A stretch of DNA of 64,000 nucleotides, taken from Neophaeotheca triangularis (Eukaryota). A program made the position numbers and the translations under genes. The stretch lies in contig BAAIJX010000026.1 of the NCBI GenBank assembly GCA_054600435.1, forward strand, positions 1-64,000, given 5' to 3'. Positions 15,677 to 26,290 of the stretch are shown here, one piece after another (within the stretch, counting starts at the first letter, position 1; every line of letters starts with the position of its first letter). The notes below the pieces were generated by a model. It had not been told where the DNA came from and searched no databases. It was given only the letters and a program-made list of their open reading frames with translations.

Positions 15677-17893
15677 TCAGGCGTCAATCGTCGACTCAGC
15701 TCCCTTCAACTCGTTTCTCTTCGCCCTCCTCGCCTCTCCTTCCTTAATGCCTTCCTGCTTCCCTATCTTGCGCTGGGCTTTTGCAAGATGCTGGTGCCAT
15801 GGGATAGGCACAAATTTGCAATTTCGGACTTGAAGCTCCTCTGCAAGAGCACGAAGGCTGAAAATTCCATGTACTTTGAGCGTCTTTTCGTAGGCTTTAA
15901 TCAGCAGCAAGTTAGTGTTCCAGAACCCTGGGTCCTCATTCTCCTCTGCCTTTTTCATCTGCTCTTCCATCAACTGGCTTGCTGAGCTTAGCGTGGCAAG
16001 AAGTTGAACTGGCTGCCGTGTTGCGGCGACCTGCAAGAGAACGTCTAGACACTCCGTCTCATTATCTATGGGTGCCACGAGAGCGTCGTACACCATGATG
16101 CGCTCAGTTAGGGAGGCGTCTTGCAGAAGATGCTCTCGCTGGTCAGCGTTAAGCAAAGTGGCCATGACATCCGCACTTCGCGCCGACAGAACTGAATCCA
16201 GACCACCCGCAACATGCACAAGTGCACCACCATTCAATAATGCGTCCACACAATCAATATGACCTTTCTCAGTGGCCACCCCGAGAGCAGTCGTACGGGA
16301 ATCGTCTTCGACTTCATCTACTATTCCACTCGCTCCTCTCTCGAGTAGCAACTGTATCATCTCGCTATCTCCCATCTCTCGATAAGCAGCATCATGCAAC
16401 ACTGTCCATCCGTTGTATTGCAAGGTGATATCGGCTCCCTGATCCAACAAAAATCGAACGAGCTGCAAATTTCCACTGAGGACAGCCTTGCTGAGGGCAG
16501 AACCGCCGTAATCCAAGCTACATCCAGCATTGATATCGGCACCAGCAGCCAACAACACCTCGACCGCTTGAAAAGCTGTAGCTCCAATGCTATTTCGGCA
16601 GCATTTCATGATCGGCGTCCTCTGATGACTGTTTCTCTTGTTCACATCTGCGCCAGCTTCCAAAAGTATCTTGATGTATTTGTGTGAGGCGCCCGCCGAA
16701 CATGCTACAAGCAATGGTGTTTCTCGAAGGTGGCTATGGTCTAAGGCATCGACCTTTGCTCCTCGTCGGATAAGGAGCCGCAACAAGTCAAGATCGCAAG
16801 TGTTCCTTGATAAAATATGTAGGGCTGCTTGATAACCATGGTCCAAGTTGACATCAGCTCCATCATCGAGCAGCTTGGTCACGACGGCAATGTCGGGATG
16901 ACCTTTCATGATTTCGCAGATAAGGCGCTTGCTCAGATCCCGAGAGCTTGCAGTGGTCTGCACACTCGGCCGCTGGATCTTTGTGTTCGTAACCAAGCTA
17001 GCCGGCACCGTCGATTGTTCTGGGGAATAGGTGGCAAGCATATATGGGGCTCTGGCTGCGCTTGCGCTTACCGCCCAATCTTGATGGCCGCCATGTCTCG
17101 TCTCGACAGATCCTGGACCTGGATCCAAAGAACTCCAACTATGCCCAGATGGTTGCTCGTTCGGACTCGCGATCTGTGCCTGCTGGTGTGGAAAGGCTTG
17201 CGGGAAATCACTGTACGCATTGGACTGCAAATGAAGTGAGGCAAAGCTCGGTGGATCGAAACGATGTTGTCGAACAAGTGCGGAGGGCTCGGGAGGCTGG
17301 TCGGCTCGAGCGGAGTAGACTGGCTGCATGGAGTCAATCCCCTCGCGTTCTTCCCGGCCCAAAGCATGGCTGGTATCGTGATGCTGCGTCTGGGTCGTCC
17401 AGGTCCTCGGCAAGGTTGACGGCTCGAAAACTGACGGTGAAGGTTCGATAGGTTGGCTAGTCTGATTTGTACGTTCGGGCGTTTCTTCGAGGATGATCAC
17501 AGGAGCTGGTTCCCTGTTGCCTGGTCGCTTTTCGCAGGCTCTCAAGTGTTCACGCAAAGCGTCTTTGCGCTTCTTTTTGTTGCAGAGATGACAGACGACT
17601 AAGTTGGTCTCTGTATGCAATTGAGCCACATGTCTCTTGAAGTTCTCCTCTCGGGAGAACAACTTCTTGCAGGGTGCGCACTCGATTTTCTGGTTCGCAC
17701 TGGGCTGTCCCTCGCCGTGCACTTCTTCACGATGGCGCTTTAGAGACTTCTTCACCGTGAAAGTCTTGTCATTGCCGCAATCACGGCATGTGTATCGTGC
17801 CTCTGACATGATAGGATGTTGGCCAGTTTTGTTATTGCTAGGAGAGGTTGACGGTTGGGCCGGGGTGGGAATGCATCTGACATGGCTAGCCAT
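15677..17893 (-). CDS. C2H2 zinc finger + ankyrin-repeat protein (alternative start 17809)
   Basis: Three N-terminal fingers (CRDC..H..H, CAPC..H..H, CHLC..H..C) and about 7 ankyrin repeats (LLxxGADVN, TPLLVAC, SALSKAV, TVLHDAA, TALGVA). Confidence 0.85.
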   Translation of the reverse strand: MASHVRCIPTPAQPSTSPSNNKTGQHPIMSEARYTCRDCGNDKTFTVKKSLKRHREEVHGEGQPSANQKIECAPCKKLFSREENFKRHVAQLHTETNLVVCHLCNKKKRKDALREHLRACEKRPGNREPAPVIILEETPERTNQTSQPIEPSPSVFEPSTLPRTWTTQTQHHDTSHALGREEREGIDSMQPVYSARADQPPEPSALVRQHRFDPPSFASLHLQSNAYSDFPQAFPHQQAQIASPNEQPSGHSWSSLDPGPGSVETRHGGHQDWAVSASAARAPYMLATYSPEQSTVPASLVTNTKIQRPSVQTTASSRDLSKRLICEIMKGHPDIAVVTKLLDDGADVNLDHGYQAALHILSRNTCDLDLLRLLIRRGAKVDALDHSHLRETPLLVACSAGASHKYIKILLEAGADVNKRNSHQRTPIMKCCRNSIGATAFQAVEVLLAAGADINAGCSLDYGGSALSKAVLSGNLQLVRFLLDQGADITLQYNGWTVLHDAAYREMGDSEMIQLLLERGASGIVDEVEDDSRTTALGVATEKGHIDCVDALLNGGALVHVAGGLDSVLSARSADVMATLLNADQREHLLQDASLTERIMVYDALVAPIDNETECLDVLLQVAATRQPVQLLATLSSASQLMEEQMKKAEENEDPGFWNTNLLLIKAYEKTLKVHGIFSLRALAEELQVRNCKFVPIPWHQHLAKAQRKIGKQEGIKEGEARRAKRNELKGAESTIDA

Positions 17894-18130
17894 AGCCGGT
17901 CATGGGGAACTGCTTCTCTTTGATTCAGTGCTGGCCAGCCTGTCGTGCGCCGCGTCTGGCGAGTAGGAACACTGCCCGCACCTCCAGGACCTCCAGGACC
18001 TCCAAGACCCCAAAGACCTCCAGGACCGCCAGATCTATTGGTTGCCTTCAAACAACCAGACGGCGGCATAGCCACGACCGCTTCATTTACAGCGCTCGGC
18101 GCGCTAATGCAGGCGCGGTGCCGGCCTTAG

Positions 18131-18169
18131 ACGGTCACCCAAGCATACCCAGCGACGGATTTCTTTCCC
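18131..18169 (+). repeat. Left terminal inverted repeat ACGGTCACCCAAGCATACCCAGCGACGGATTTCTTTCCC
   Basis: Exact reverse complement of 23706-23744. Confidence 0.97.
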
Positions 18170-18549
18170 CGCGGGCCCGCCGAACTTTTGAACTTCTTTT
18201 ATTCTCTCTAAAGTCCTACTCTCTCTCTATTCACATACTATTCACACCTTTGTTATAATCTCTAACGTCCTCGACTTCTTTCATAGCGCAAATTGCGAAT
18301 ATGGCCGTATGCGGCCTAAGGCATCCTTTGTTTACGCGTTATGCGCGCGCCTTAAAGTCGCGACCTTACCACTTCGAAAACCACCTTCTATACTACTACT
18401 ACCACTACTACTACTACTACTACCGGTCCCTTTACTCGATTACACTAAGCCTACCTCGTTAGGGCATAGCAGTTATAGTCTATTAAGTATCTACTAGCTT
18501 ATAGGCTGCATATCATACTAATAAAACTACCGGCCAAAATTCACTCGCT

Positions 18550-19124
18550 ATACCCCCTAAAAAGTAGGTGTTTTTTCCTAAATTAAACACCTTTTAAGTA
18601 CACTCTATACTGACTTACGCATAAATAGACGTAAAGTTAGTCCTAAGCCGGACCCGAGCGATATTACTATCCGCGACCTTAAAAGGCTCTACCGTCCCGA
18701 AACTACCGACTCGAGCGACTTTTAGTTCGTGAAGTAAGAGACTTAGAGCGAGTAGCTTATCGAGTTAAAGGTAGGGGCTATACATAAAAATGTAGCTAAT
18801 AAGTTAAGGAAGTTTACTATAGCTAGTAAGATTATAGAGGATAAAGAGGTTAAGATAGATACGGTAGAGCCTTACTCGGAGTGTACTCGCTATAGTAATT
18901 AGCTACCTTACCGTGTTTATAAGCGCGTTAAGCTCGAGAGCGGCGTAGTAGTCGATAAGGGGGAGACATACGCGCTTTACAAAAGGTAGAGTAAGTCTCG
19001 CTACACTACTAACCGTAATAAGAGTCCCCCCTCTATTAAGGAGCGATTATAGCTAGCGGAGGCTACGATCTAGACTCTCTCTACTAGAATCCGTGCGCTC
19101 GAGTTTAGGAGGCCTAGTACCTAA
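18550..19124 (+). pseudogene. RIP-decayed transposon accessory gene: six-Cys cluster followed by a coiled coil
   Basis: Restoring TAC/TAT to TGC/TGT gives C-x2-C-x11-C-x16-C-x2-C-x7-C followed by IKERLQLAEATIQTLSTRIRALE. In-frame stops are TAG/TAA, explicable as mutated Gln/Trp codons. Confidence 0.55.
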
Positions 19125-19332
19125 GTAAGGGGAGGTCAAATAAGGAGTTTTAGGTTTTAAGAGCTAAATACAGCTATTATACCCTAAGTTAACTATAAGT
19201 TAGAATTTGTTTACTTTAAAAATCAATGAATTCATTGAATCTTACCTAAATTCAACTAATTAACCCTATAAACCTTAATTTTACTCCTTAAATCTATGAA
19301 AAAACCGCTATATAAACTCGAATTAAAGTGAT

Positions 19333-19659
19333 TTATTGATACTTATACGCAAATAGTAGCTAACTCGCAAAGCTACAAAATAAGGGGTAAGAAAAAAAGG
19401 AAAAACTAATAACTAAAAAAAAAACACTCGATTTAAGAGCAAATCCGCGAGAAAAAAAAAAGAAAAAAAATTATTGATACTTATGCCTACATAGTAGTTA
19501 ACTCGCAAAATAGACTAAACTAAACTCCTACCCTAAAAAAACTAAAATAATAAAAAAAAAAGGACAAAAAAAAAGCCTCTTAGAGCGCCTAGTCATTATA
19601 AGAAGAAAAAAACCGAGATTTTGATGCTATTTATGCGTAGATAGTAGCTAACTCGCAAA
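19333..19659 (+). repeat. Three imperfect ~39-bp direct repeats (TTGATxCT..TAT...ATAGTAGYTAACTCGCAAA) separated by A-tract spacers
   Basis: Copies at 19333-19371, 19471-19509 and 19621-19659. Confidence 0.85.
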
Positions 19660-19769
19660 CATGTTTCTTAAAAAAAAAAAACCGATAAAAAAACTAGTAA
19701 TCATAAGTACTAAGTCCTACGGCTCCCCCCTACGCCTACGTAGGGTATAGGTACTATAAGTCTCCTACT

Positions 19770-21377
19770 ATTTACCCCTTCTTCCCCCTTCCTTTACCCT
19801 TACCCTTACCCTTACCCCTAGACTTTCCCTACCCCTACCCCTATCCCCCCTACTAACCTCCGTCTTCTTTATCGATAGGCCTAGCTCGTTTAGAGCGGCG
19901 AGGTATCTCCCCTTCCTTACTATATAACTTATCGCTAGTCTATACGCCGCTAGAACCCCTATTACTATAGGTAAGAGGGTCGAGGGGGTCTAAAGGTAGT
20001 AGACTCGATAAGCGCGACGACTCGGAACTGTCGTTACTAGTACCGGTTACATCTTGCTTATCTCGCGTAGTAGATTTGCTATCCGCTTCCCCCTCCGGTT
20101 CCCCCTCTTGCTCTATATCCCCTCTATACCCTATAAATGTATTAAAGGTTAGCCTAGGGACTAGATCATAATAGAACGACTCGTTACCGCCTCGCGTAGT
20201 AGCTCGCGTAGCTCGTAGGGTCGGTATAAGGCCTATTAGGTCTATGAACTCCCTAATCACGTTAGGGAGCTATATCCTCGAAGTCTATAACTACTCCTTC
20301 TTAATCGGCGTATCCCCGGCCTCGGTACTAGGTTATATATCTTCGCTATACTCGTTAGTAGCTCGGTGGTTCCGGGGTGTCGCTATTATCTTGCTCTTCG
20401 AGTTTTTGCTCTTCTTTTTTCTACTCTAACGGTCTATACGTAACTAGACGACGATTTCTGCCTTATAAGGCTTGTTTTTACTAGCCTTAAAGGGGATTAG
20501 TACTTCTCGGATTAACATGCTCTTAACTGCACTACTATAGTTACGTAGACAGTCGTCGTCGTCGAAACTATTAGTAAAGCGATAAGTGTAGTACCGAGTC
20601 TAGGTCGAGTTAGGGTTCCTAGTCTGCTCATTACTACACCTTTTAGTTAAGAAGCCTAAAAGCGGTAAGCTAGACTCGACGAAGGCCTACTCTATGAATC
20701 CGTCTATAACCTCTTAGATCTTATATAGCTCGTTGTACTTCTATAGGTCTATACTAGGCTCGTCGCCGCTATAAGCAATAATAGTAACCTCTTATAACTA
20801 AAAAGTGACCTCTATCCGGAACTTAATAGGCTTTAGAGTAGGAGGTCTAGAGCTATTACTACGCTAAGTTGCCTCTAAGTTATATAAGCTTAAAGCTATC
20901 GAGCCCGTATAAGGCTTACCCTAGAGGTTTTGTAGACGAGTACCGGTTAGAGTACGGTACTCGTTAGCCCGGGATTTATAGAAGACGGTGTGCGTAGGAC
21001 GAGTTTAACGGCCTAGATCGCTATTACCTCGCTCCGTGACTCCTACTACTACGTCTTTATGGCTATACTCTTAATTCGCTAGCTCCTAATAGGAGGTCCG
21101 GGAGCTACTAGTATAGTCGGAGGCGTTTATCGAGTATATATGCTGGTCTAGATAGGCGTTGTCTCAGGGTAGGCCTCGTGGGGTAGTAGTAGTAGGGGCC
21201 ATTAATGTATAGCGGATACCCCTCCTATCTAGGGAGTAGGGGTTACGGAGTACGTATACGGGACATGTGTCTAGGTAGCTATAGAGTCGCTCGTGATTCC
21301 CCTTCGAGCGCGGGCAAATCGGATTGTTAGCCTATGTCAGTATGTAGTTATCTATAGTAGCTCGGTTAGTGTCTATA
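19770..21377 (-). pseudogene. RIP-decayed second accessory gene of the transposon; boundaries approximate
   Basis: Long coding-like stretch with TAG/TAA stops, a surviving ORF at 19940-20260 and a (GK)n-rich basic tail near 19780-19820. Confidence 0.45.
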
Positions 21378-21759
21378 GTAGTAGTAGCTCGGTTAGAGAT
21401 GTACGCGTAAGTAAGGTTAAGACGAAAGATAAGGTTGAAAAAGAGTAAGAAGTAAAGCTATGCGTATATAGAGATAACTACGAGATAGAAGAGAGTAAAA
21501 GGAAGAAAAAGAAAGAGGGGAGCGCGACCCTATTGTTTATAGCGGTTACGAATAATGCATACTAGCGGTCTAAAACTTACCCTTATATATGTAACTATGT
21601 AGGCGCTATTCACGCGTGATGTGTCGTAATCTAAGGTAAATAGTTATCAAAACAGCGGTACCGACCCCTATACTTTATATATAATGTTAAATCGAGCAAT
21701 AGAGGCGAATATAGCCTAGAGACACTAACGAGTAACACCCTAAGACACACAAAATCCAC

Positions 21760-23604
21760 TATAGGCTAGGGTTAATATTCGCTATAGGAGTAAAGTGCAT
21801 ATTACCTTACTCCGGTAGGTCATTGTCGCCTAGGCTAGTACTACTAACAAAAGGCTCCCCCGCCGTATTAAACACATCCCTAGCTACGTTAGTAGCTCGC
21901 TACCGTGCCGCCGCTAGTGGTCGCGCGAGCTTACTAAGATCCGGGGCCTTACTATACTACATATAGGTGTGAATTCGCTCTTTAAGGGCTATAAAGGCGT
22001 ATTAGTGGCGTCGTAGGCTGTCTACGGCGCTCTAGTAACCGTCTAAGTCACTAAATCCGAGCTCCCCTAAAGCATAAGTGCAAAATGCCTTAGTAGGCTT
22101 AGGTAGGTAGGCGTTAATGTCTAAATGTAAGGGTTAGCTACTAGATTATACATGAATCGTAGCTAGATATCTCGCTTACGGAAATTAGCTAACTCATTTT
22201 GTAGTAGGGTAATAAGGTTAGTAGGTATAGGGAAGCCATAGTCCCTCCTCCCTTATATCTAAGGGTACTCGTATAGTAGCTCGAGGACTCCTAGCACTAT
22301 ATAAGGCCTACTTAGCTACTTACGTATCTTGTGTTTGTTCTAGAGTTTAGTAAACTCGATAAACTGCTCGCGAATGATAGGTATATAGATAGCTAGGAAA
22401 GCAATATGGTATTAGATTAAGCTAGGCCTATAGATACCCCTACTTACTAGGTACTTAAAGTAGTGCTTCTAGGCATTAATCGATCCTCTAGTTACCTAGC
22501 CCTACTATATCTCAATATGCTAGTTTTACTTACTAGTACTATACTAGAAACAGTCCTTAAAGCTTAGGGGTTCGCTATTAGGTCCTAACCTCAATTACTC
22601 TACGATCTAGTAGTAAGCGTCTACCGTCATGGTAGTCTTACCCCCCCTATCGGTAGTAATGATTTCCGGAGTAACACCTATCTCTAAGACGGTCTTAAGG
22701 TATTACGCTACAACTAATACCCCTATACGGCCGGAGATACCTACATAGATCTACATGATTCTACGTGAATATGCGTCTATAGCACTATACACCTAAATAC
22801 TATATGACTCGAGCTTATAATAGGCGTCTATAGACTAGATATGATTAGGGCTAGGAATGTTAACTATACCGCGGACATACCGTATAGTACGGTTATAGCG
22901 CTTAAAGGCCTACGGATTAATCTGTTTTACGACCTTCTATAGTCGAGTCCTATAGGAGTAGTTAGTTTAGGCTAGAGTTTATAGTAAGTCCTACGTAAGG
23001 GGGGACTATAAGGTTAACATAGCAAAGTTCAGATGAAAAGTGCTAAGTTAAGTTAAGACGATAAGGAAACCGGCTATAGCTCGAGGTGTAATAGAGTAGA
23101 ACTCGCTTACCTACCTACGAGGTTATATTTTGACCGCATTTTGGCGTATAGGTTAGTTAGCCCGAGGTCCTTAATCGCACCGTCTTTATACTCTTAGGTT
23201 AATGCCGCGTATATATCTACCTCTATAGATGCCTCTTGCTATGTCCCCTTCTTAACACGCTTTATAAGGCCTATCTCTTTACGGAGCTTCATAACTATGT
23301 GTCTACTTATGTCACTAAGGCTGTCTGCTAGCAAAATCTACGTAATTTGCTCGTCTATGATGCGGTTTTCTGCGAATATATAGGCGAGTCTCGCGCGAAG
23401 CGTAGGTGTGTTAAATACACTAGTATTGCGGCGCTTTAACTATACCCCCTATGCTCGTAGTGACTAGCGAAGGCGCGTAGTACTAATATGGCAATCGTAG
23501 TTGTCTCGTAGTGCGGCATAGATCTCGTCTTACTAGACACTGTCGGCGGAGAGCGCCTCGATTTTGGCTCTAAAAGGTTCGAGGTCGATCTTGCGGCGAG
23601 TCAT
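21760..23604 (-). pseudogene. RIP-decayed transposase: N-terminal Clr5-like HTH region + integrase-core DDE domain
   Basis: Reads MTRRKIDLEPFRAKIEAL...; PSPNHI*SIDAYYKLE...AIDAYSRRIM*IYVG; ITTDRGGKT; F*YSTSK*N*HIEI**; AIYIPIIREQF..L*NKHKIRK. These correspond to the PGPN-W-D / D-x-G / NQRIE-WW integrase motifs. A probable intron lies near 22950-23110 and the 3' end is approximate. Confidence 0.85.
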
Positions 23605-23705
23605 GGTATCTCTAGTTTTCTAGGAATGGCGGAGTTTGTATAGCGAGGTACATGCGATTAAGTTTGAGTTAGGAAAGTGAAAGATGGAAGTTCAAGCAGG
23701 GCGTT

Positions 23706-23744
23706 GGGAAAGAAATCCGTCGCTGGGTATGCTTGGGTGACCGT
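23706..23744 (-). repeat. Right terminal inverted repeat
   Basis: Exact reverse complement of 18131-18169. Confidence 0.97.
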
Positions 23745-24527
23745 CCTTAGCTACTGCAACACAACTGCGACGGTCAGCGCGCACCGCCAGAGGCGCACCG
23801 CCTGAGAGAATACTTGTTCCCTGCCCTGACAAAATATTGAATATCTGCTGAGAAAACCTTGGTATTCCGACTTTTCCTTGAGGCTTGCAGATCGACACTG
23901 CCCGAGCGTATACATACATACACTACGCAGTGAGCACCTCCAGACCCTCCGCTGCCAGCTAGTCATCTGCGTCTGGAGGTCCTGCGCAGGGGAAGACCCA
24001 ACGGGAGCTTTTAGCTGGCGATGGATCGCCGCAAACCGCCGCTTAGTTTGCCAAAGGGTACCGCCAGAAAGGGTGCCTTGTGAACTCGCCATGAAACAGG
24101 TACACCACTAGGATCCGTCACCTCCAGGAACCGTTGCCTCGATGTATCTGTCTGTAATGTAGAGCACATGGTGTCAAGTGTTTTCATTCCCACTCCCTAT
24201 GCACCGACAGGCACCGCCAGAAACGTCAGCGTGCGGTGCGAACTTTGTCCATTGCGTATTCGCGTGGCCAAACATTACCCTTCTGACCTTGCTGTATTCG
24301 ACCGCCAGTGCCTCTGGCACCTCCAGAGTCTCCAGCGAGCCCAGCCTGGTAAACCCTTCTTTCACGATGCACAGTATACTTAAGTGTACGACCTCCTTCC
24401 CTCCGCTTGATATTCTTTCAATTGTATTCCTCAACTGTCTTTTAGAACTGTCCACTACAGCGCAACGATTTCTGCCTTCTTGAATACGCTTCCAATCATT
24501 CAAAGGCCACTAGAATCCACCTTGAGC

Positions 24528-24909
24528 ATGTCGCCAATCCAACCCAACAGCACCGCGATCGTTGAGCAAAGCACCTACACCACGGACTTGTCAACGGTCT
24601 CCGCGTCCTCCTCATCGGTCGCAAGGAACACCTCCGCCCTCGACCCAGAGATGACCTACGAAATCGTCTTCGGTATTTTGGCTATCGTGCTCGCCATTGC
24701 TACCCTGATTATCGCTGTCATCCACTTCCGAAAATCTACCCGCAAGCAAGACGGAAGCCAAAACATAGCATTCTACGAGCTCGAAAGTATGACATACAGT
24801 AGGTGTTACTGCTCCAAGTCCGTGAGGTTCGTAAGAGCTGACTCTTTCCACAGTTCGGCAATACCGCAGGAGTTCATCGATGCCCAGAGCACCAGAGCTG
24901 TTACATTGA
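24528..24909 (+). CDS. Small single-pass membrane protein; probable intron 24787-24853
   Basis: S/T-rich N-terminus, TM segment IVFGILAIVLAIATLIIAVIHF followed by RKSTRK; GTATGA..GCTGAC..CAG intron. Confidence 0.55.
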
Positions 24910-26290
24910 AGGACAAGATGTACTAGAAGCTATGGGTCGGTGCTTTGGTTCAGCTTGAGTTGGCGCCCTGGAGTTTGGATAGAACGCGGTGGGTTCGACT
25001 GAGAGAAGGGTTGGTGGGCGTGGTGGTTTCGGTTGCATACCAGGCATAGTGGAGTCTTCCGGCTATCGTTGCTATCGTGCGCTGCACAGCGCGTGTCTTG
25101 TTCGAGTGTGGGTGGCAGTCGAGGAGACGGTGGTTGTGTCTGTAGCTATATTTGATTCAATACTCACCGCGCGCGCCTGGTCGCTGCGCATACATCTTAT
25201 CGCCTTTCTGTGTCGGTCCGCGTAGGCGCAGTGTGAGGTGGTGCTTCGCTAGCTGCTTACGGGCACAGCCGTGAACGGTGGAATAGCGACTGCTTGTTGC
25301 TTTGTTGTTTGTGCCGGCTCGTGTAGGCGCAAAGCGAGATGCCGCTTGCGCAGTCTGTGAGCGATGACACTACGCCGCGTCCAGCGTGACTTCGCGCTGG
25401 AAGTGAAACTGGCGCCATGAGATGCGGCCTGCCCGAGTCCAGCGTTACGTCGGACCTAAGTGAAGAAACAACCACCTCCAAAAGAATCTCTTCTCCAACC
25501 CCAGGCCACCACAGCAAGCCCAGTGAATTGATGAAAAGCGCTGATCCATACAGCTTCGGAGTAGGTTGCCAAAAATTCCTTGCCGAACCGAAGTCCAACA
25601 TGGGGGTCGTTGATTAGTTTTCAACTAGCAATAAACTGAGCTCGAACGAATTCTCACTGCTACAGTTAATGCCCTTGCACTCGGATGGGAAAGAAAAGAA
25701 AGGAAGAGAAAGCGGAAGAGGGAGGCAGCTCAATGTTATAGTCGCGAATTGGCGGGACCGGGAGCGGGACGCTTAGTCAGCGATGCTTTGACTCATACGT
25801 GGGTGCCTGAGGTTTGAGACTTGGCTTTGGTCAAAGGAGAGAGGAGGGGAAGAAGGAAGTGAGGTAGGCTGTAGGGTAGCAACAGCGCATACTGGGTATC
25901 GACAATCTATATAGTACATTTGTGCAGGCTTCTCACGACATCCAAACTGGTATCAAGCGCACGCGTACCCGCGTTGGAGACCCCAGTGCTTTGCCCGTAG
26001 CGTCAAGCGTGGCCATGTACTGCGTCCAGAGCCGGCTTAGACCATGTATTCGCTCCTTGCTCTCGAAGCCACTGTGGTGATTCGCGCCGATTAAGAACCT
26101 CCATAATCGTCAAAGACGACGTGAGCTTCGTTCATGGGCCGTTCCCATCCACTGGCCTCAGTGTATTTGAATCGGCTTCTTGCTCGCCGACTGAACATTT
26201 CCACCATACTGACAGTCGTCGTGTCTCCAAACGAAACGCCCAAACAGCCTTCACAATGCCCATGACCCCTGGACAGATCTTGAGAACCAT

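Follow-up and report, generated by a model that had tools for sequence, protein, structure and literature searches.

A RIP-inactivated three-gene DNA transposon with GACGG ends and a 4-bp target-site duplication in Neophaeotheca triangularis, probably related to IS3EU

The window analyzed here, 64,000 nucleotides of the Neophaeotheca triangularis contig BAAIJX010000026.1, holds a 5,616-bp element that we interpret, with a probability of roughly 0.85, as a cut-and-paste DNA transposon that was once autonomous in its ascomycete host, belongs to a lineage akin to IS3EU/GingerRoot and has been killed by repeat-induced point mutation (RIP). The element is IS3EU-like in mechanism without being a canonical member, as its ends, the length of its target-site duplication (TSD) and its gene set all differ. 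The original prediction for this DNA had already described an IS3EU-like transposon that has three genes and whose ends are non-canonical, and this much we retain; the ends it preferred, ACGGT..ACCGT with a 6-bp TSD, we replace with 40-bp terminal inverted repeats (TIRs) that begin with GACGG and a 4-bp TSD.

Copies, ends and target-site duplication

Searches of the element's own genome returned four related families, A to D, with family and copy counts that are lower bounds. Family A comprises the window copy, C32 (93% identical), C4 (90%, and split by a nested element of ~19.7 kb) and non-autonomous elements on C5, C17 and C1; family B comprises C20, a copy split over C43 and C74, and non-autonomous elements on C8 and C16; family C is represented by C9 (10.5 kb), and family D by a C8 copy (26.4 kb with nested long terminal repeat (LTR) elements) and a non-autonomous element on C58. 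The transposase cores of the four families are 44-72% identical. In the non-autonomous elements both ends are derived from the transposase-side end, and an 18-bp-type minisatellite lies inside.

The boundary of the window copy is best judged from these relatives. Its inverted repeat (18130-18169 and 23706-23745) is 40 nt long and 100% complementary, and the letters CCTTAG are present at 18125-18130 and again at 23745-23750. The original prediction read this as a 39-bp TIR with a 6-bp TSD, and gave a 40-bp GACGG..CCGTC TIR with the TSD CTTA as its alternative. Tabulating the flanks of ten family A/B copies, the check it had proposed, comes out for 4 bp: with G as the end, a 4-bp TSD fits 10/10 copies, while 39 plus 6 bp fits three (the window copy (C26), C1 and the miniature inverted-repeat transposable element (MITE) on C8) and fails in the other seven, in C16 by a single base. 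Whatever the target, 19 of the 20 ends have G as their outermost base, next to ACGG, the remaining end having A. The G before ACGGT is part of the element, the TIR is 40 bp (GACGG..CCGTC) and the TSD is CTTA; the window copy gives the appearance of 39 plus 6 bp because its target happens to be C-NNNN-G. With a TSD of 4 bp, the supposed 6-bp TSD no longer argues for IS3EU, and the element is less canonical than had been predicted.

Features of the element and its ends
18130-23745: whole element, 5,616 bp, RIP-inactivated (from the inverted repeat, the RIP signature and the empty site)
18126-18129: left TSD, CTTA, 4 bp (from the flank table of family A/B copies)
18130-18169, plus strand: left TIR, 40 bp, GACGG at its outer end (from the inverted-repeat comparison)
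23706-23745, minus strand: right TIR, 40 bp, CCGTC at its outer end (from the inverted-repeat comparison)
23746-23749: right TSD, CTTA, 4 bp (from the flank table of family A/B copies)

When the four families are pooled, 11 of the 13 copies scored have a 4-bp TSD and the other two a 5-bp one, and G is terminal at 25 of the 26 ends. A family C MITE that lies nested on C58 and has a broken right end was left out of the TSD count. Family C starts with GACCG and family D with GACTG (GACTC at one end), and the three scored copies of these two families have TSDs of 5, 4 and 5 bp. The family A/B TSDs are CTTA, CTAG (in 4 of 10 copies), CTCG, GTGT, GGGA, ATAC and GTGG. Just outside the TSD the 20 ends have C ten times, G seven times, A twice and T once, so that C or G stands at 17/20 (P=0.004 against window GC). 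Target choice thus leans to C or G flanking the TSD and to CTAG inside it.

An empty site, which the original prediction had suggested looking for, was found in run X2, made from another sample of the same organism. There a contig joins 18124 to 23745, skipping 5,620 bases, and the site without the element identifies a true insertion with duplication. Six letters at the junction fit either side of the join, and the skip cannot separate a 4-bp from a 6-bp TSD because 5616+4 and 5614+6 both equal 5620. Depth over the element in X2 is ~5-25 times that of the flank, a contig depth that is not a copy number. Run X3 gave no contig matching here, which does not prove absence. In this sample (S2; window positions 16000-25900) the insertion is absent here and the family is present elsewhere; its contigs have C or G at many positions where the window copy has T or A, and S2 may hold less decayed copies.

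The transposase and its relatives

The core of the window copy matches PF24764 (E=2e-11) and PF00665 (rve; E=1.5e-4), and the catalytic D (22828), D (22651) and E (22513; first base of each codon) are intact, the first D lying ~205 codons from the ATG. This agrees with the decayed integrase-core transposase and D/D/E motifs of the original prediction; E is changed to K in the C32 and C4 copies. The predicted 'complete' element is complete in structure and not in frame, as exon 1 of the transposase contains eight stops and exon 2 another 20. In the core frame 24/24 stops are TAG or TAA. The predicted Clr5-like N-terminus is weak here and clear elsewhere: Clr5 gives no match in the window copy, stays below the cut-off in the C32 copy (E=0.066) and in the intact homologue P0005 (E=6e-4), and passes it in the metagenome relative L088 (E=3e-8). 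No HHCC zinc finger matched in six frames of the decayed sequence.

Transposase features, in order of transcription
23111-23604, minus strand: exon 1, ATG at 23604, Clr5-like helix-turn-helix region (aligns to P0005 residues 2-156)
22950-23110, minus strand: putative intron 1, 161 bp, GT..AG (same position in families C and D)
22180-22949, minus strand: exon 2, integrase-like DDE core (PF24764 and PF00665 matches)
22121-22179, minus strand: putative intron 2, 59 bp, GT..AG (splice signals and frame change)
21800-22120, minus strand: exon 3, 3' limit approximate (tblastn with P0002 and P0005, splice signals)

As a query, the single decayed core found no homologue among longer proteins; an alignment of seven rows found five intact homologues, four of them at 35-41% identity and one from Aspergillus novoparasiticus. 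Viral and prokaryotic contigs yielded no relatives, and a search of solved structures gave no match below E=0.38. Compared by eye with the supplementary alignment of PMC10045372, the core has the motif series of the IS3EU and GingerRoot rows, including rust IS3EU-1_PGra, and is unlike the Ginger2 or IS3 rows. Our tree, which comprises 43 of 59 loci (those with at least 150 core residues) and five proteins and includes no named IS3EU or Styx protein, places the four GAC-ended families in one clade (support 100/99) that adjoins the intact proteins P0002-P0004 (97/91), among fungal-type transposases including those of TACGG-ended elements. An earlier tree of 22/59 loci gave the same GAC clade.

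Some of these relatives retain ends of their own. L088 is bounded by TACGG..CCGTA and has a TSD of 5 bp, and its ends tie the GAC-ended transposase group to those of IS3EU type, and the core of our element is 36% identical to that of a TACGG-ended element. L087 looks like a degraded form of the L088 insertion; L084 is bounded by TACGG/TACGT and lacks a clean TSD, and L115 contains a 104-bp repeat. TIRs were examined in the 18 longer of 54 metagenome loci, and GAC ends were seen in none of them.

Genes 2 and 3

The two further decayed genes that had been predicted have homologues in other families. Against the possibility, raised with that prediction, that other copies lack them, the other full-length copies keep both. 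All four families share the same three-gene layout, with genes 2 and 3 in the same order and orientation, and a layout common to families whose cores are only 44-72% identical is old rather than the product of a nested insertion; recent nesting of the two genes is refuted by the same conserved order.

Features of the gene 2 and gene 3 region
18600-19110 (approximate), plus strand: gene 3, small and decayed, facing the other two genes (homologues in the C32, C20, C43, C9 and C8 copies)
19120-19740: A/T-rich spacer between converging 3' ends, with three ~57-nt direct repeats at 19315-19659
19760-21334 (approximate), minus strand: gene 2 main exon, ~500-aa decayed protein (coding constraint, homologues in the families)
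near 21405-21470, minus strand: putative short upstream exon of gene 2

The gene 2 protein has a conserved N-terminal part of ~280 aa and a tail that is acidic/Ser-rich and Gly/Lys-rich. Between families A and B, 5/5 indels against C20 are multiples of 3 and transversions number 4/9/15 by codon position, a pattern that shows coding constraint on gene 2. It is in the spacer at 19120-19740 that indels shifting the frame between families pile up. Stop counts alone do not call its strand (25 against 24 on the antisense frame), which is settled by homology to family D, where the gene 2 profile finds a homologue downstream of the transposase and on the same strand (E=3e-10). Gene 3 was found at six places in the genome, 6/6 inside GAC-ended elements, and its homologues are 28-41% identical to the C9 protein. 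A conserved N-terminal domain is followed by a helix resembling a coiled coil, which families C and D have in a longer form, and a model of the C9 protein predicts a helix at 139-191 (N-domain below 50 on the predicted local distance difference test, pLDDT).

Decay and history

Within the window the RIP signature (TpA/ApT and CpA indices) is found only at 18001-23500, and GC content between the TIR arms is 37-45%, against ~54% outside. The genes near the element encode fungal Zn2Cys6 and fungal transcription-factor domains, and these neighbors, together with RIP confined to the element, would therefore make the host a RIP-competent ascomycete. Over 5.6 kb, only 6-9 transversions but 381-531 transitions separate the copies of family A, and 334 CpG plus 291 CpA changes make up most of 702 transitions, a pattern that points to recent spread of the family followed by RIP-type mutation in place.

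Families A and B form a mosaic. Transversions amount to 11-12% in two stretches, the left end and the part that spans transposase and right end, against 2.1-2.4% over genes 2 and 3 (P ~1e-42), so that the block at 18451-21450 is ~5x less diverged than the transposase and ends. The gene 2 and 3 block was probably exchanged between A and B, each transposase staying with its own TIRs, and we find this the simplest reading because the transposase is the best conserved gene across families.

Relationship to known elements

Published IS3EU elements have TA..TA ends and usually a 6-bp TSD (PMC10045372), with TAYGG..CCRTA ends in rusts (PMC12730594), and the TSD of GingerRoot is 6 bp, rarely 7-8 (PMC6839031). 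IS3EU encodes two proteins (PMC8232023) and its TET+ families three, and more than two genes are already known in IS3EU-related fungal elements (PMC8232023, PMC12730594). Our element resembles these in its integrase-like DDE core with the same motif series and without an HHCC finger, in TIRs longer than 30 bp, in an N-terminus, helix-turn-helix-like in its homologues, that falls in the IS3EU range of 100-300 aa before the first D, and in the multi-gene organization of fungal members; positions 2-5 of its ends, ACGG, are those of the fungal TAYGG type. It differs in that its transposase reads inward from one end and that its two extra genes are orphans, not alpha-kinase or TET/JBP genes as far as Pfam shows.

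Styx/REP9 of Zymoseptoria, an active element of 7.9 kb with four genes, two of them with DUF3716 (PMC8232023, PMC10853768), has a 6-bp TSD in 33/36 copies (PMC8232023) and a TIR of 36-43 bp that starts with ACGG (PMC10853768 supplement), which is the geometry that the original prediction preferred. Both are ascomycete IS3EU-related TIR elements with several genes, RIP-decayed copies, ACGG in the TIR and a preference for C over G three bases from the target center. The element described here differs in its GACGG ends, 4-bp TSD, 5.6-kb length and three genes; DUF3716 has no match at E<=0.05 in the decayed element sequence.

Integrase-like transposases and 4-bp TSDs also occur in Ginger1/Ginger2 and IS481EU, whose ends, unlike ours, are TG..CA or TNT..AYA (PMC10045372, PMC6839031); IS481EU moreover has a single gene and a parabasalid host (PMC10045372). 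Ginger1 carries an HHCC finger, and the core motifs of Ginger2 differ. Sola and Kolobok combine 4-bp TSDs with purine-start ends and have their own, non-integrase-like transposases; the rve/rva_4 match would point away from both. In the searched literature, with Repbase, Dfam and subscription journals outside its scope, we found no IS3EU-type element with GAC ends or a 4-bp TSD, and so no already described family with the same ends.

Alternative explanations

One alternative is that the original geometry is right after all, with 39-bp ACGGT..ACCGT TIRs and a 6-bp TSD as in Styx. The published Styx ends begin with ACGG and have 6-bp TSDs and the empty site is compatible with this geometry, but the seven copies that it fails to fit, and the terminal G at nearly all ends, make it hardly credible. 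It is also conceivable, though very unlikely, that the element is a single-gene one of IS3EU type that acquired genes 2 and 3 later as cargo, by nesting or capture. Neither the gene 2 nor the gene 3 profile finds a match in 54/54 metagenome loci with related transposases, most of which are short contigs (one piece at E=0.73 is negligible), TACGG-ended relatives have a different, divergently oriented second gene, and the gene 2 and 3 block has probably moved between families A and B. Against cargo, no inner TIR or TSD pair was found within the element; both genes are kept in order across families, gene 2 is under coding constraint, and gene 3 keeps to GAC-ended elements in its own genome.

Very unlikely, in our view, is the reading that the element represents a superfamily of its own rather than a variant of IS3EU. 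Three diagnostic features (ends, TSD length and gene set) do differ from described IS3EU, and Kojima's group, although their tree was unresolved, used TSD and protein features to split IS481EU off from IS3EU (PMC10045372). However, the core motifs match IS3EU row by row, the core nests among the fungal transposases of TACGG-ended elements, and TSD length already varies, being 5 bp in L088 and 6-8 bp in GingerRoot.

Several points weigh against the placement that we prefer, as an IS3EU/GingerRoot-related autonomous transposon with three genes of its own. The ends are GA..TC and not TA..TA, and the TSD is 4 bp (in some copies 5) and not the usual 6; the placement rests on motifs and on unnamed relatives. 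All GAC-ended copies come from one genome, with families C and D scored on one and two copies. For gene 2, the match in family C is weak (E=0.03; C and D match each other there), and pLDDT values of 28.9 for gene 2 and 50.5 overall for gene 3 make the folds unusable. Searched in their decayed form, which gives low sensitivity, the gene 2 profile has no match among 1.84 billion representatives and the gene 3 profile none among 4,376 candidates, and neither gene has a Pfam match.

Proposed mechanism and origin

By analogy with DDE transposases, the transposase of the preferred reading would bind the TIRs through its N-terminal helix-turn-helix region, free the ends and join the ..GTC-3' ends to phosphates of the target that are separated by 4 bases (by 5 in some relatives), and host repair of the 4-base stagger would make the TSD. 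The short non-autonomous elements, built from the transposase-side end, would have been moved by the same enzyme. We speculate that genes 2 and 3 are long-standing helper genes, encoding a transposition cofactor, regulator or anti-silencing factor, and not captured host cargo, with gene 3 probably acting through a coiled coil; this guess is based on their conservation.

A further scenario, tentative and on balance doubtful, is that a Styx-like ancestor gave rise to the lineage with GAC ends and 4-bp TSDs when the active site of its transposase moved by one base, that this three-gene fungal lineage is widespread, and that its two orphan proteins are new transposition or anti-silencing factors. 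The ancestor would have had ACGG ends, a 6-bp TSD and a preference for C-NNNN-G targets; a donor cut one base further out would capture G..C as new ends, and attack one base further in on the target would bring the stagger down from 6 bases to 4. Where the target reads C-NNNN-G, both products have exactly the same letters. Pooling both ends, the outer bases of the Styx TSD are C34 G19 T9 A6 of 68 (PMC10853768 Table S2; counted by hand from 35 Arg00 rows, with one duplicate dropped and the 34 six-mers taken as true duplications), and this profile and that of the base outside the 4-bp TSD here differ with P=0.73. Such matching profiles suggest a one-base cutting shift without proving it. A plain GC preference could give the same profile and 20 ends are few; the spacing is also inconstant, given the 5-bp families and TAYGG elements with 6 bp, and kinship with Styx is only putative. 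That Styx itself is mis-bounded we considered and rejected, as the last base of its 6-mers varies.

The ends and the TSD length are the usual hallmarks by which DNA transposons are classified. IS3EU is poorly described, and ends and TSDs drift around one type of transposase (TA with 6, TA with 5, ACGG with 6, GAC with 4 or 5), so rules that demand TA ends and 6 bp will miss or mis-bound fungal members, as the boundary error of the original prediction illustrates. The two conserved orphan genes may encode new helper proteins for transposons, and the register shift, if true, would be a natural case of a coupled change in transposon ends and TSD length. As for the copy in the window, it is inactive and unremarkable debris; the element as a whole will chiefly interest specialists in transposons.

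Surroundings and further observations

A C2H2 zinc-finger and ankyrin-repeat gene lies at 15677-17899 on the minus strand, with a likely ATG at ~17808, ~320 bp from the left end of the element, which places the insertion within the upstream region of this gene. Immediately left of the insertion is a 9-bp tandem repeat (17971-18040; Pro-Gly-like in one frame), with a weaker look-alike at 24301-24343, and inside the element a CTA/ACT microsatellite at 18385-18433 differs in length between families.

Among the metagenome relatives, L088:5261-11529 and L084:5591-14045 are apparently un-RIPed, with a divergently oriented second gene that has no Pfam match, and L084 contains a nested, Ginger-like open reading frame with rve and integrase H2C2 domains. 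The family C copy C9:423628-434153 carries, between genes 2 and 3, an additional ~5 kb of low-complexity sequence rich in repeats, with no Pfam match and a collagen-like repeat below the cut-off. The C4, C43/C74, C1 and C8 copies are interrupted by RIP-mutated, LTR-retroelement-like elements with long direct repeats, those in the C4 and C74 copies being related to each other, and the family D element on C58 has a piece of family C inserted in it. Finally, an internal minisatellite containing GTCGCATT is similar across non-autonomous elements of different TIR families (C5:37187-38200, C17:368482-369232, C1:1054246-1076137, C8:284878-286041, C16:206835-207986 and C58:62478-64173).

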